Source: Promethearchaeota archaeon (GTDB lineage Archaea; Asgardarchaeota; Hermodarchaeia; Hermodarchaeales; Hermodarchaeaceae). Taken from it: 64,000 nt of DNA. The position numbers and the translations under genes were made by a program. This document shows, piece by piece, positions 30,403-37,803 of the stretch (positions are counted from its first letter, which is position 1; every line of letters starts with the position of its first letter). Location of the stretch: assembly GCA_048939625.1 (NCBI GenBank), contig JBHLPH010000002.1:32001-96000 (forward strand). The letters run 5' to 3'. The notes under the pieces were generated by a model that ran no database searches, had not been told where the DNA came from, and saw only the letters and a program-made list of their open reading frames with translations.

Positions 30403-31254
30403 TCATGAGAAGGCTTTGGTCCAGGTGGTTTTGATTTCATCTGTTGTTATTTTTCTGATGGTGTTAGTTTTGGTTTCGATGACGGCGGCGTTGAGTTCGT
30501 CGGGTGTTCGGGTTTTGTCGCGGAGGAGGGATTTGATGGTAAGGGCGAGAGCCTTGTTAAAGGCGTGGTTGGGTGCGTATTCTTCGTTGAGAATGGTGTT
30601 GGTTTCGTTGCGGTGGGTACCTTCGCACCAGGTGAGGACTTCGCGGTATGTGCCACTGGGATCAAGAACATAGAGGTGGAGGCCGGTGTCGTCGATTCCT
30701 CCGATGAGGGCGAGAAGGCCGAGGGGGCGGATGTCTTTTTTGGTTGTATAGGAGTGGATGAAGAGAGCGAGACGGTTGGTAAGTTCTTCTACGGGGATTG
30801 GTGTTTCAGTTTCTCTTTGATAGGTTTGTGCTTCATGGATGGCTCTGTGTTTGAGGAGGAGAAAATCCCCAGAGAGGCCAGTTGGTACCATGCCGATATG
30901 GTCGGTGATTTGGAAGGTTTCCCAAGGCTGAGTGAGGATGGTGTGGTGTTTCTCCGTTTGGGAAGCTTGGGGACGTTCTTTGGCGAGGATAATGCCGCCT
31001 TTGTAGCGGAGGCCGAGGATGGTGACGCCACGGGGTGGAGATTCCATGGCGTATTCAATTTGGAAGATGCGTCCGTCAGGGGAGAAGAGGTTGGTATCGT
31101 CGTAGCCGCTGGGGACGCGGATGGGGAGGGTTTCGATGTAACGGATGAGGGCAGCGCGGATGAGTTCGGCTTTACTGCCAAACATGCCTTTCTGAACGAC
31201 GGTGTTCATATATCGGTCCAGCTCATTAGACACAACAACGCGTACTTCAGGCAT
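30403..31254 (-). CDS. Ribbon-helix-helix domain fused to a proteasome alpha-type subunit
   Basis: aa 1-43 RHH (VRVVVSNEL...V.KG.F.SKAELIRAAL), then GYD...FSPDGRIFQIEYA, G.TILGL....I.LA.E, GLSGD, RPLG and DPSG. Confidence 0.88.
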   Translation of the reverse strand: MPEVRVVVSNELDRYMNTVVQKGMFGSKAELIRAALIRYIETLPIRVPSGYDDTNLFSPDGRIFQIEYAMESPPRGVTILGLRYKGGIILAKERPQASQTEKHHTILTQPWETFQITDHIGMVPTGLSGDFLLLKHRAIHEAQTYQRETETPIPVEELTNRLALFIHSYTTKKDIRPLGLLALIGGIDDTGLHLYVLDPSGTYREVLTWCEGTHRNETNTILNEEYAPNHAFNKALALTIKSLLRDKTRTPDELNAAVIETKTNTIRKITTDEIKTTWTKAFS

Positions 31255-31272
31255 ACATGAAAACTCCTATTC

Positions 31273-31336
31273 AATGGATATATTACGGATACTTTTAAAT
31301 GCTCTGCGCATTACGGAGTAAATGGAGTAGCTCCAT
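31273..31336. promoter_or_regulatory. Divergent promoter / putative RHH operator
   Basis: TTTTAAA (31293-31299) flanked by ATTACGGA direct repeats (31282-31289, 31310-31317); palindrome ATGGAG-tag-CTCCAT (31322-31336). Confidence 0.45.
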
Positions 31337-31457
31337 GAAAAAGATTAGCTTACCCGAGGACAGTTATTGGAAACTAGTTGAGTTGAAAGGTAAATTCCGT
31401 TGCACAACATGGAAGGACCTGGTTGATCTGATTCACCAAAAATACCTGAACGACTGA
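31335..31457 (+). CDS. Small RHH-like protein (40 aa), absent from the ORF track
   Basis: MKKISLPEDSYWKLVELKGKFRCTTWKDLVDLIHQKYLND*; beta-helix-helix pattern; GGAG 7 nt upstream of ATG; fills the intergenic gap. Confidence 0.65.
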   Translation: MKKISLPEDSYWKLVELKGKFRCTTWKDLVDLIHQKYLND

Positions 31458-31463
31458 TTCCTG

Positions 31464-31676
31464 TTATCCAGTTACATTTGGTTCATCGTCGAAGAAGAAG
31501 ATGTCTTCGATTCGTTTCCCTAATTGTTGTGCTATGCGGTGGGCTAGTCGCAGGGAGGGGTTATAGGTTCCTTTTTCGAGGAAGAGGATGGTTTGGCGGG
31601 TGACACCAACAGCTTCAGCCAAGTCTTCTTGAGTTAAGTTATGTTGTTGGCGTAGTTCTCGGATCTTGGTCTTCAT
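31464..31676 (-). CDS. XRE/Cro-C1 family HTH transcriptional regulator
   Basis: [30 protein letters not shown]......IEDIF. Confidence 0.93.
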
Positions 31677-31682
31677 GGTGGT

Positions 31683-32051
31683 CTAGTCTCCGCGTTTGTC
31701 ATAGTACATCATTGAAGCCCCCCACATTGTATAGCCTACAACCATGATGAGGACAAGGGCAGCAAAGAAGAGCTCTTGGACTGGTGGTCCACCGATGGCA
31801 AGCCAGGCGATGGCGATTACAGCACCCATTAAGGTGATGAGGAACATCACGGCGATGAAGCCATTTCGGGAGGCTTTGACGAAGTTGTTGACCAGTCGCT
31901 CATCACCTCGTCCTTCGAAGCGAAAGAAGCTGAAAAACCCAAAAAAACCGAAGAAGCCAAACCAAGCCACAGAGCCAGTTAATAGATAGAGAAGCCCTAA
32001 GAATCCGAGGAACCCAAGAAAGCCCAAATAATACATTCTCACTTCTAGCAA
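31683..32051 (-). CDS. DUF3796/DUF2178-like membrane protein
   Basis: GFLGFLGFLG and FGFFGFFGF repeats, DER motif; typically paired with an XRE regulator. Confidence 0.8.
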   Translation of the reverse strand: MLEVRMYYLGFLGFLGFLGLLYLLTGSVAWFGFFGFFGFFSFFRFEGRGDERLVNNFVKASRNGFIAVMFLITLMGAVIAIAWLAIGGPPVQELFFAALVLIMVVGYTMWGASMMYYDKRGD

Positions 32052-32062
32052 CCCCGTTTGAT

Positions 32063-32094
32063 GTTAGAAATAATTAACGTTAGAAATATTTAAC
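32063..32094. promoter_or_regulatory. Tandem palindromic operator, putatively for the XRE regulator
   Basis: GTTAGAAATAATTAAC followed directly by GTTAGAAATATTTAAC (GTTA-N8-TAAC twice), just upstream of the DUF3796-XRE pair. Confidence 0.7.
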
Positions 32095-32124
32095 ATTTAT
32101 TGTTTGGCATCAAGAAGCCCCTTC

Positions 32125-32239
32125 TGTACGGATCGAACCATTCTCTCATACCCTGATGGAAAGTAGATAGTGCGTCCTTTGCCGTGGTTCCAGCAGAAGA
32201 GCCGAGAAGAACCGGGAACAGGTGAAAGTCTGGCGCTGA
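32125..32239 (+). pseudogene. Displaced copy 2 of the hydrogenase large-subunit 3' end
   Basis: Translates CTDRTILSYPDGK*IVRPLPWFQQKSREE(+1 nt)REQVKVWR* versus CTDRIILAYPDGSKEEKPWAWFQEKSREEREKVKAWRR*; many differences are synonymous. Confidence 0.9.
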
Positions 32240-32324
32240 TGATTGACTAGACTGCTGTAGTCGTGGTGTTTACTCCGGGTTGCTAGAGGAGAGTGGGTCT
32301 TTCAGGACAGTTGTTGTGGAACTG

Positions 32325-32735
32325 TTAGGCGAATTCCATTTCGAGGCGTTTGATGGCGTTTTGGAGGACCTCGATGGCTTCAGTATTTTTGGTTTGGATC
32401 ATGAGGAGTACGCCTTTTTCGAATTCGGCGAGGGATTTGGTGAAGTCGCGCCAGTATGGGTTTTGTTTCATGGAGAGGGCGATGTCGATAGGCATTTGGT
32501 AGCGGCGGTGGAGCCAGCCGATGACGGAGGCGAGGGGAATGTAGATGACGAGGAATACGAGGAGAAAGTAGAGGATGTTGGGGAAGAGGATTTGCATCCC
32601 AGGAATATTGACGAGGACGAGTGTGTACATGAGGATGCTGAAATTCATGAAAGCGAGGAAATAGACGAGGTAGGTTCCGTGTCCCGTGCGAAAGTCAGTC
32701 CAACGACGTTGGAAAAAACCTTTTTTCGTGGTCAT
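32325..32735 (-). CDS. Hypothetical 2-TM membrane protein
   Basis: ORF with two hydrophobic segments; FRTG..TY..Y....N and IFP....F......P....IGWLH pattern. Confidence 0.7.
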   Translation of the reverse strand: MTTKKGFFQRRWTDFRTGHGTYLVYFLAFMNFSILMYTLVLVNIPGMQILFPNILYFLLVFLVIYIPLASVIGWLHRRYQMPIDIALSMKQNPYWRDFTKSLAEFEKGVLLMIQTKNTEAIEVLQNAIKRLEMEFA

Positions 32736-32824
32736 AGTTGATGCATCTCGAAATTACTTTACTAGATTCTGCTTTTATTTCATTGCGGTATGGGATTATC
32801 CGGGGATATTAAGGGTAATCAATT

Positions 32825-32898
32825 GAAGAGAAGCCATGGGCGTGGTTCTAGCAGAAGAGCCCTAAAGAGCGGACCACGTGAAGGCGTGGCGTCGTTAG
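32825..32898 (+). pseudogene. Displaced copy 3 of the hydrogenase large-subunit 3' end
   Basis: Translates EEKPWAWF*QKSPKER(-1 nt)HVKAWRR*; 32877-32897 is identical over 21 nt to 29757-29777 in copy 1. Confidence 0.88.
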
Positions 32899-33068
32899 TG
32901 TGTTTTTCGTTCTTTGTATTAGAGCCCGCATGAGGTCGTAGTACGCGATAGTTGTAGATTTTGTCAGGGTGATTTGCCGTGTTCTAGATGAATTAGAATG
33001 CGGTAGAAAAGGCTTGTAAGGAAGTAAAGAGGGAGTTGTGTTCTAGCAGTTACAATCAAAACAGCGGG

Positions 33069-36793: not shown

Positions 36794-37660
36794 TTAGTGT
36801 TGTCCTTTTAATCGTTCTAACAGTCGCTCCACGATGTGTTGGAAGGCTTGAGCGACGGGTGTTTTGGCTTCGGCGACGATGAAGGGGGTGCCTTCATCCG
36901 AGAGGGTCATGACCCGTGGATCAAAGGGGAGATCGCCTAAGAAAAATATACTGAGGTCTTTAGCTGCATTCTTACCACCGCCTTTGCCAAATAGGTTGGT
37001 GACTTTATTACAGTGAGGGCAGTGAAAACCAGACATGTTTTCGATGAGGCCAAGGATTGGGATGTTCATGGTGCGGGACATGATAGCGGCTTTACGGGAA
37101 TCGAGTAAGGCGACTTCTTGCGGGGTGGTGACAATGATGACGCCGTCGAGGTCGGGGAGGAGTTGCATGATGCTGAGGGTTTCGTCGCCAGTGCCTGGTG
37201 GGAGGTCGATGATGAGGTAGTCGAGACTTCCCCAGTTAACTTTGGAGAGGAATTCGCTGATCACGCGCATTTTGAGGGGCCCGCGCCAGATGATAGGGGT
37301 ATCAGCGGATTGGAGGAGGAATTCCATGGAGACAGTGAGGATGTTGAGGGGACCGAGGACAGGTTCGAGTCCGGTGTCGCCACCGATCATGCGAGTGCCT
37401 TCGAGGCCGAGCATTTTAGGGACGTTGGGTCCAGTTATGTCGGCGTCAAGGATGCCGACGACGTTACCTTTCCAAGCGAGGGCAGTGGCGAGGTTGACTG
37501 CAACAGTAGTTTTGCCAACGCCGCCTTTACCAGAGAGGATGACGATTTTGTGTTTGACGTGTCGCATCTTTTCAGCGATTTCTTGTTCTGCGCTCGTTTG
37601 GGCGCCAACCATAAGATCTTTGGGAATTTTACCCGAGGATTTTGTTGTGTCTTTCGACAT
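36794..37660 (-). CDS. mrp: Mrp/NBP35 family Fe-S cluster carrier ATPase
   Basis: SGKGGVGKT, DADITGP, WRGP, DLPPGTGD, VTTPQ and ENMS...CPHC motifs. Confidence 0.95.
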   Translation of the reverse strand: MSKDTTKSSGKIPKDLMVGAQTSAEQEIAEKMRHVKHKIVILSGKGGVGKTTVAVNLATALAWKGNVVGILDADITGPNVPKMLGLEGTRMIGGDTGLEPVLGPLNILTVSMEFLLQSADTPIIWRGPLKMRVISEFLSKVNWGSLDYLIIDLPPGTGDETLSIMQLLPDLDGVIIVTTPQEVALLDSRKAAIMSRTMNIPILGLIENMSGFHCPHCNKVTNLFGKGGGKNAAKDLSIFFLGDLPFDPRVMTLSDEGTPFIVAEAKTPVAQAFQHIVERLLERLKGQH

Positions 37661-37803
37661 AGAAGTGATCACGACCAGAGACTAGTCGGTGGTTGGTGCT
37701 TTATGGGGAATACCTTTAATGTTACGCATCGGCAAAACATCAAAAATCCTCAGATCGATGGGTTTAGCAAGTATTGAATGTTGATACGTGTTAGGTGGAT
37801 TGT

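Follow-up and report, generated by a model that had tools for sequence, protein, structure and literature searches.

An open reading frame on the minus strand of a Promethearchaeota archaeon contig encodes a protein, RHH-alpha, in which a predicted ribbon-helix-helix (RHH) domain is fused to a complete alpha-type proteasome domain. The frame lies within a 64,000-nucleotide stretch of DNA, which we refer to as the window. RHH-alpha is clearly a homologue of alpha-type proteasome subunits and its parts are known folds; as a family it is undescribed. What is new is the conserved fusion itself, together with its family-level divergence and its genomic contexts, which are absent from the literature searched. 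No publication on an RHH-proteasome alpha fusion was found there, in line with the preliminary description of this DNA, whose author was not aware of any characterization, and a survey of proteasome homologues (PMC8665760) makes no mention of it. The gene and its parts are located as follows:

30403 to 31254, minus strand: RHH-alpha gene (283 amino acids plus stop), based on the translated reading frame, Pfam, orthologues and dN/dS
31120 to 31254, minus strand: codons 1 to 45, predicted ParD/CopG-like RHH domain, based on alignment, AF2, Foldseek and sub-threshold ParD and RHH_1 matches
31105 to 31119, minus strand: codons 46 to 50, core of a short Pro-rich linker, based on the N-termini of 26 loci
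31042 to 31098, minus strand: codons 53 to 71, alpha N-terminal signature and helix H0 (D..FSPDGRIFQIEYA) with the gate cluster, based on PF10584
30520 to 31032, minus strand: codons 75 to 245, alpha-type proteasome (Ntn-fold) domain, based on PF00227 and Foldseek
30925 to 30927, minus strand: codon 110, a Glu where canonical alphas have the HbYX-pocket Lys (K66 in Thermoplasma), based on HMMER and MAFFT

Along the protein, the RHH domain (residues 1 to 45) is followed by an 8-residue linker, LPIRVPSG (residues 43 to 50), and by the complete alpha-type proteasome domain. Pfam assigns residues 53 to 71 to Proteasome_A_N (PF10584, E = 5.8e-10) and residues 75 to 245 to Proteasome (PF00227, E = 1e-30). 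The AF2 monomer model of the full-length protein has a pLDDT of 86 and places H0 at residues 59 to 75, with the linker below a pLDDT of 50. Alpha subunits from A. fulgidus and human were the best Foldseek matches of the body (TM scores of 0.8 to 0.9 by target). The length of the linker is constant within one residue across three phyla, the Tyr of the YD motif standing at position 50 or 51 in 26 loci. All fused proteins begin with M-[PAS]-E-[VIL]-R. The start is fixed at Met1: many loci have a stop one codon ahead of it, which rules out a translation start downstream of the RHH domain. The fusion claimed in the preliminary description is real: the reading frame is intact, the alpha domains are found by Pfam, AF2 and Foldseek return an RHH fold, and the architecture recurs in dozens of genomes.

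By Pfam, the N-terminus of RHH-alpha scores below threshold, with 18 bits for ParD_antitoxin (cut-off 21) and 13 for RHH_1 (cut-off 20.5, E of about 0.1). Sub-threshold matches were likewise obtained for 10 of 25 fused members with ParD_antitoxin and for 6 of 25 with RHH_1, and a profile built from these 25 members retrieved ParD proteins as its top two matches among PDB sequences (E = 0.05 to 0.07). The AF2 model of the isolated domain (pLDDT 91) consists of a strand (residues 1 to 9) and two helices (10 to 21 and 28 to 41/42). Its Foldseek list is almost purely made up of RHH proteins, with probabilities of up to 0.97 and, the domain being so short, E-values of only 0.3 to 5. ParD antitoxins superpose on it with an rmsd of 0.8 to 1.7 Å over 39 to 42 residues, followed by NikR, ArtA, CopG and Arc. 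Sequence matches and predicted structures agree in placing the N-terminal domain within the RHH topology despite the sub-threshold Pfam scores. The strand-helix-helix topology is common to the RHH domains of ParD, CopG and Arc, ParD antitoxins being the closest structures. RHH-alpha also resembles them in the motif G-x-x-G-[SN]-K-A-E-L-x-R at the start of helix B, and is set apart by its scores below the Pfam thresholds and by a C-terminal proteasome domain in place of a toxin-binding tail. No ParE-type or other toxin family was found by Pfam among the neighbours of the gene in the window. Across 25 members from three phyla, residues E3, R5, G23, K28, A29, E30 and R33 of the RHH domain are invariant; they include the strand Arg and the first part of helix B, which touch the DNA in RHH complexes of solved structure. 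The RHH domain is also the best-conserved stretch in an alignment of about 45 Asgard orthologues.

These orthologues, about 45 full-length Asgard proteins with 53 to 87% identity, were recovered by a word-indexed search, and their named sources are Hodarchaeota or Promethearchaeota. With one genome per species, the same architecture, matching from residue 1, was found in four Bathyarchaeia records (37 to 39% identity) and in about 16 records labelled Thermoplasmata or ‘Methanomassiliicoccales’ (33 to 36%). In a profile-free search of 1.8 billion representatives (50%-identity clusters), about 24 of the best 150 aligned from residue 1. The representatives also include longer alpha fusions (with RING, kinase, remorin or lipase domains), which were set aside, since they carry eukaryote-type domains and are unrelated to RHH-alpha. 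Using the first 62 residues as query, we detected the fusion in 4 of 301 Asgard genomes (for the source genus, 2 of 15), in 3 of 201 Bathyarchaeia genomes and, within one Thermoplasmata order, in 18 of 22. No relatives were found in viral contigs. The fusion is thus not confined to the source genome and is carried by Hodarchaeota/Promethearchaeota, Bathyarchaeia and Thermoplasmata. Pairwise Nei-Gojobori estimates gave dN/dS ratios of 0.01 to 0.05 for the RHH codons, 0 to 0.065 for linker and signature and 0.09 to 0.18 for the alpha core. Judged by these ratios, every part of RHH-alpha is under strong purifying selection, most of all the RHH domain, and the relaxed selection that the preliminary description had considered is not seen. 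Because the fusion recurs in dozens of genomes at such low ratios over these codons, it goes beyond a chance joining of two domains.

With respect to the alpha body, residues Y51-D52, S58-P59-D60-G61 and E67-Y68-A69 are present, and the gate cluster Tyr-Asp..Pro..Tyr is therefore retained, as had been noted from the sequence at first sight. These Y-D, P and Y residues are known for their role in the gate of the assembled ring. In at least 80% of the fused proteins, 14 of the 19 columns conserved in canonical alphas are retained within the signature and H0, while in H1, the H1-H2 loop and H2 only 6 of 22 such columns are retained and 8 are lost. H1 and H2 presumably face the beta ring, as in the Thermoplasma 20S structure. 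The canonical motif A-x-A-I-G reads T-W-C-E-G in RHH-alpha, which bears out the earlier observation that it is altered. Canonical archaeal PsmA (Thermoplasma, M. jannaschii 3h4p, A. fulgidus 1j2p) has the same fold, signature and helix H0, and shares with RHH-alpha the Y-D, P and Y gate residues and an R-P-x-G loop. It differs in that it has a gate tail of about 10 residues where RHH-alpha has a 45-amino-acid RHH domain, in that the pocket Lys is replaced by Glu in the Asgard clade of the fusion and many H1/H2 invariants are gone, and in that RHH-alpha is accessory and rare, not universal.

The pocket position deserves a closer description. HMMER aligned EKIFQ of the M. jannaschii alpha (3h4p) to WETFQ of RHH-alpha, which puts E110 at the pocket Lys, a charge reversal. 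The preliminary description had reported the EKIF motif and its Lys as lost; the loss holds, but the register was off by one, the Lys aligning to E110 and not to T111. All 41 canonical alphas in a MAFFT alignment have the Lys. Among the fused proteins, every Asgard member has Glu here, three Bathyarchaeia members have Gln and one Thermoplasmata subclade has Cys or Gly, and Lys is retained in the remaining Thermoplasmata subclade and in a single Bathyarchaeia member. The Asgard clade thus lacks the Lys, but the earlier term ‘activator-blind’ does not extend to the family: since one Thermoplasmata subclade and one Bathyarchaeia member retain the residue, loss of HbYX docking is not a family trait.

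The source genome (2.3 Mb, 88% complete) also codes for two canonical alphas, one of them adjoining an SBDS gene, and for two betas, all on other contigs. No beta gene is found near RHH-alpha, as the preliminary description had stated for the stretch at hand. Six fusion-bearing genomes were checked, the source genome and five others, and all have canonical alpha and beta genes; in those five, further proteasome-family genes score higher than the fusion. Against the NCBIfam models for PsmA, RHH-alpha reaches 144 bits for TIGR03633 (cut-off 287) and 159 for NF003075 (cut-off 219). In a maximum-likelihood tree, which was obtained by a quick search and contains long branches, all 41 canonical alphas group together in a single clade (SH-aLRT 97), and each of the 24 fused proteins is placed outside it. 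The fused proteins fall into a group of Asgard and Bathyarchaeia proteins and a long-branched Thermoplasmata group; the shared RHH domain suggests a single origin of the fusion. The second alpha of the source genome (L001 or L004) falls within the canonical clade and retains the pocket Lys. By sequence and tree position, RHH-alpha is a third, divergent, accessory alpha paralogue of the source genome, and its accessory status is supported by the two canonical alphas and two betas encoded beside it. Haloferax alpha2 and the seven eukaryotic alpha types are likewise extra alpha-type genes, with which rings of mixed composition are possible. Archaeal second alphas and the eukaryotic alpha types, however, keep the pocket Lys and are not known to carry an added domain of a DNA-binding type.

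Upstream of RHH-alpha, a small gene is transcribed in the opposite direction, and the region between the two has the features of a shared promoter:

31335 to 31457, plus strand: divergent gene of 40 amino acids (MKKISLPE..YWKL..), RHH-like by residue pattern, at 8 of 8 Asgard loci
31255 to 31334, no strand assigned: 80-bp divergent promoter region, based on conservation across Asgard loci
31292 to 31301: TATA-like CATTTAAAAG in this region
31276 to 31291: TATCC-N6-TATCC in this region
31315 to 31328: ACTCC-N4-ACTCC in this region
31264 to 31267: GGAG ribosome-binding site in this region

In all 8 Asgard loci, the fusion is accompanied by a head-to-head RHH-like gene of 38 to 41 amino acids at a distance of 79 to 82 bp (53 amino acids to the stop in locus L013). 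The 40-amino-acid partner has no Pfam match, and its matches in the Atlas are small antitoxin-like clusters, which we treat as leads only. The four Bathyarchaeia loci all have a head-to-head gene as well, of the AbrB/MazE type (64 to 79 amino acids, 56 to 91 bp away), and the Thermoplasmata fusions are without a small divergent DNA-binding partner. Other neighbours vary from locus to locus in Asgard and Bathyarchaeia, which leaves the small divergent gene as the sole constant there. The preliminary description had pointed to pairing with the 40-amino-acid RHH protein. As a general mechanism, such a heterodimer is ruled out by the AbrB-type partner in Bathyarchaeia and by the lack of a partner in Thermoplasmata. 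A co-transcribed cognate toxin, as expected for a ParDE-type system, is absent; the partner is divergent and only 40 amino acids long.

Across six Asgard loci, the intergenic region has a mean column identity of 77%, compared with 57 to 66% identity of their proteins. Its layout comprises a central TATA-like element, two CTCC boxes on one side and, on the opposite side, two ATCC boxes 11 bp apart, with GGAG ribosome-binding sites at both ends. The promoter elements recur in loci L104 and L106. The repeats might just as well be bound by the small partner protein. Genome-wide scans for operator-like motifs gave counts at chance level, with none next to psmA, psmB or PAC2 genes, and therefore show no sign of a proteasome regulon.

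The gene lies in a variable setting, bounded on both sides by copies of the end of a hydrogenase gene:

29656 to 29786, plus strand: copy of the hydrogenase gene 3' end, one boundary of the RHH-alpha block, based on repeat families D4, D7 and D8
32119 to 32245, plus strand: following copy of this 3' end, opposite boundary of the RHH-alpha block, based on repeats and alignment

Downstream of the hydrogenase large-subunit gene, its last 70 to 120 nt are found three more times. If the hydrogenase's own 3' end is counted as copy one, the RHH-alpha module is placed between tail copies two and three. The same layout surrounds an orthologue in another genome, behind a different hydrogenase type, and in a third locus a tail-like stretch comes immediately after the small partner gene. 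Within the genus, three genomes retain the hydrogenase, with other or reshuffled cassettes and without RHH-alpha. Additionally, a contig from a sediment metagenome joins position 27532 straight to 32238 and thereby omits exactly the first two blocks. The repeats, the variability within the genus and the shortened contig uphold the mobile block proposed in the preliminary description.

Codon usage in the block is unusual. Third codon positions of RHH-alpha are 55% C and 6% G, the second highest C3 value of 1186 long open reading frames, and the C3-rich usage is common to the hydrogenase and other cassette genes. High expression is a doubtful cause, since the other extremes (hydrogenases, Arf/Roc GTPases, PFOR and unknowns) are not obviously a classical high-expression set. 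A LAGLIDADG identity considered for a neighbouring 670-amino-acid reading frame was dropped because no third of the protein had Pfam or PDB support, and this frame showed no homology to the 578-amino-acid neighbour in locus L007. None of the PADLOC defence models matched the fusion, its small partner or the uncharacterized neighbours, and a nearby HTH_3 gene was recognized as a generic HTH only.

In the Thermoplasmata order in which 18 of 22 genomes carry the fusion, the surrounding genes keep a stable order, and purA lies upstream in divergent orientation. A gene for a PAC2-family chaperone overlaps the stop codon of the fusion or starts at most 12 nt downstream in nine Thermoplasmata loci. 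The linked PAC2 proteins end in M-Y-G, an HbYX-type tail, and tails of this type dock into the pockets of alpha rings. PAC2 and PbaA-PbaB chaperones are linked to the fusion by genomic position in these nine loci, and their fold is unrelated to RHH-alpha. The linkage is found in one Thermoplasmata subclade only and could be inherited gene order. The source genome has four PAC2 genes, all on other contigs, and none lies near the fusion in the window.

We tentatively propose that RHH-alpha is a ring-forming accessory alpha subunit that would also bind its own promoter, a dual role of the PutA/NikR type; we hold this reading to be plausible, if somewhat short of probable. The preliminary description had put forward three candidate mechanisms, namely an assembly sensor, an activator-blind modulator and a DNA-tethered ring, and we treat all of them as hypotheses. 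Because the N-terminal signature and H0 are retained, the alpha body may have kept ring-type alpha-alpha contacts. The preserved gate and H0 signature, together with the fixed linker, suggests that the body would still be part of a ring, with the RHH domain positioned directly over the pore. The surface that contacts beta rings and HbYX activators would be altered, since many H1/H2 invariants are lost and the pocket Lys is Glu in the Asgard clade. DNA binding, most simply autoregulation, is suggested by the retention of the DNA-contact residues and by the conserved promoter with its repeats: paired RHH domains may bind the repeated TCC boxes that flank the TATA element in the divergent promoter from which the gene itself is transcribed. 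The protein would then act as a repressor when free or paired, and its DNA binding would be set by the state of the large C-terminal body, that is, free or assembled into or onto alpha rings. In its assembled form, the protein would be a bulky cap over the pore, where, in the Asgard clade, HbYX activators would be unable to dock.

RHH domains fold only as dimers and an alpha ring has seven subunits. Therefore, full pairing of the RHH domains within one homo-heptamer would be impossible, which leaves mixed rings, ring-to-ring pairing or a free dimer that competes with assembly. A homodimer prediction for full-length RHH-alpha gave a score of 0.13 against a mark of 0.42, which speaks neither for nor against binding. 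In PutA and NikR, DNA binding of the N-terminal RHH domain is governed by the state or location of the C-terminal body. Both carry this domain on an enzyme or sensor body, whereas the body of RHH-alpha is a proteasome ring subunit; the likeness lies in the possible mode of action and not in membership. A more specific version of the proposal, to which we give a small chance, is a PutA-like sensor of proteasome assembly: free subunits would repress through their paired RHH domains, and incorporation into a ring would change the pairing geometry and release the DNA. The promoter repressed in this way would be the protein's own, perhaps along with further targets.

Among the alternatives, a pure transcription factor survives best, and we still consider it unlikely. 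The alpha-like body would have left the proteasome to serve only as a scaffold for oligomerization or sensing, never touching beta rings or the 20S particle, with NikR- or MetJ-type regulators and their C-terminal scaffold domains as model systems. The loss of 8 of the 22 H1, H1-H2 loop and H2 columns, with 6 retained, is in keeping with such a role, as are the branching of the protein outside all canonical alphas, its rarity in Asgard and Bathyarchaeia, which would suit an accessory regulator, and the small DNA-binding gene always paired with it there over a conserved promoter. A protein that had left the ring, however, would hardly be expected to keep the gate and H0 signature almost perfectly, including Y-D, P and Y, at a dN/dS of 0 to 0.065. 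The fixed length of the linker suggests a defined geometry on a ring, and the PAC2 chaperone gene co-oriented with the fusion in nine loci, overlapping it or at most 12 nt away, likewise argues against a body detached from the proteasome.

The opposite possibility, which we rate as distinctly improbable, is that RHH-alpha modifies the cap or gate of the proteasome and does not bind DNA at all. The RHH domain would be a protein-protein dimerization module that closes the pore, blocks activators or stacks particles, with pairs forming between neighbouring subunits or between two facing rings (seven dimers, D7 symmetry). Ring-to-ring pairing of this kind would solve the odd-number problem of a domain that exists only as a dimer. 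The RHH domain is separated from the YD gate motif by only 8 residues at a fixed spacing, the pocket Lys has become Glu, Gln, Cys or Gly in most clades, and the PAC2 linkage fits a role on the particle. The invariant residues, in contrast, are those typical of DNA-contacting RHH domains (the strand Arg and S/N-K at the start of helix B), and a conserved promoter with repeats lies directly upstream; both favour an RHH domain that meets DNA.

We further considered that a mobile element uses RHH-alpha as a weapon or addiction module: as a decoy alpha, it would poison or retune the host proteasome, for instance to shield proteins of the element or to arrest the cell, and would be tightly repressed by the small RHH or AbrB protein. 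RHH and AbrB are classical antitoxin folds, and the antitoxin-like fold of the partner, the cassette array in Hodarchaeales that varies among genomes of one genus, the great rarity of the fusion in Asgard and Bathyarchaeia and the extreme codon usage for the genome (C3 second of 1186 long reading frames) would all be compatible with such a module. The two genes are divergent, unlike co-transcribed toxin-antitoxin pairs, and no ParE-type or other toxin gene is found nearby. Known defence families gave no match, no relative was found in viral contigs, and in one Thermoplasmata order the fusion behaves as a core gene in a stable gene order. On this balance, we regard a decoy as very unlikely. An artefact of assembly or annotation, or a decaying gene, can be rejected as having a negligible chance, since the same stretch is present in sediment metagenomes from several studies, dozens of genomes have an unbroken frame that is under strong purifying selection, and nothing was found in its favour. 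No RNA run is listed among the data sets that contain the stretch.

Archaeal 20S proteasomes are regarded as simple particles with one or two types of alpha and beta subunits, and to our knowledge their regulation in archaea is largely unknown. RHH-alpha is a conserved alpha-type subunit with a domain of the DNA-binding type exactly where gate and activators meet. This would make it either a cap or gate of a novel type or a means of coupling ring assembly directly to transcription. As a small protein with a defined candidate DNA site, it makes both ideas testable at the bench, and it should be of relevance to specialists in proteasomes and in archaeal regulation. Its presence as cassette cargo in Hodarchaeales points to horizontal movement of proteasome parts between archaeal phyla. 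If the assembly-sensor reading is true, RHH-alpha would be the first archaeal transcription factor built from a proteasome subunit and would represent a prokaryotic counterpart to the eukaryotic Rpn4/Nrf1 feedback, in a fusion found, among other lineages, in the closest relatives of eukaryotes.

The gene for the RHH-alpha fusion protein (a ribbon-helix-helix domain joined to a proteasome alpha-type subunit) lies within a variable cassette array downstream of a [NiFe]-hydrogenase large-subunit gene, and a corresponding array was found behind a [NiFe]-hydrogenase large-subunit gene in another genome.

Features of the cassette array (window coordinates unless a locus is named)
27415-32905: variable cassette array
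27555-29567 (-): ORF of 670 aa with a high content of His, Thr, Leu and Pro
29656-29786, 32119-32245 and 32775-32905: hydrogenase-tail copies
31464-32051 (-): HTH_3 (Xre-type) regulator gene, then DUF3796 membrane protein gene
L007:1925-7433: corresponding array in the other genome

Every array block is terminated by a divergent repeat of the hydrogenase gene's 3' coding end, and the blocks differ or are reshuffled among genomes of the same genus. In one metagenome contig, position 27532 is fused to 32238. No integrase was seen near the array. The HTH_3/DUF3796 pair shares an inter-repeat block with RHH-alpha; in metagenome run X7, the pair is present at 100% identity and 29010-31519 is without cover. 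In the other genome (L006/L007, 2424-3617), the same kind of hydrogenase-tail cassette carries Arf/Roc-type small GTPase genes.

The 670-aa ORF is kept in two same-genus genomes, where it adjoins the hydrogenase on its downstream side (DNA identity 74-87%). A search with all parts of the protein gave no Pfam or PDB match, and an assignment to LAGLIDADG proteins, for which motifs had been spotted by eye, was not confirmed.

Both in window 27555-31254 and across its own genome, we observed a small class of genes with extremely C-rich, G-poor third codon positions (C3 of at least 0.5; median, 0.22) and an A+C-rich coding strand. Its members are RHH-alpha, the hydrogenase large subunit, PFOR alpha, two Arf/Roc GTPases, the 670-aa ORF, an ORF of 292 aa at window 36794-37672 and an unknown of 587 aa. 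The skew is common to RHH-alpha and its close orthologues and is absent from distant ones. The Arf/Roc-type small GTPase genes of this genome (C38:1874-2791 and C60:4545-5411) rank among its most C3-rich.

In Thermoplasmata, the RHH-alpha stop codon is overlapped or abutted by a PAC2-family chaperone gene at nine loci: L041 and eight further ones.

L041:8723-9508: PAC2-family chaperone gene, overlapping or abutting the RHH-alpha stop codon

The PAC2-family proteins beside RHH-alpha have the C-terminus M-Y-G, which is of the HbYX type. The Thermoplasmata subclade whose RHH-alpha keeps the HbYX-activator pocket Lys has no adjoining PAC2 gene, and the adjacency coincides exactly with the subclade having Cys or Gly in place of this Lys.
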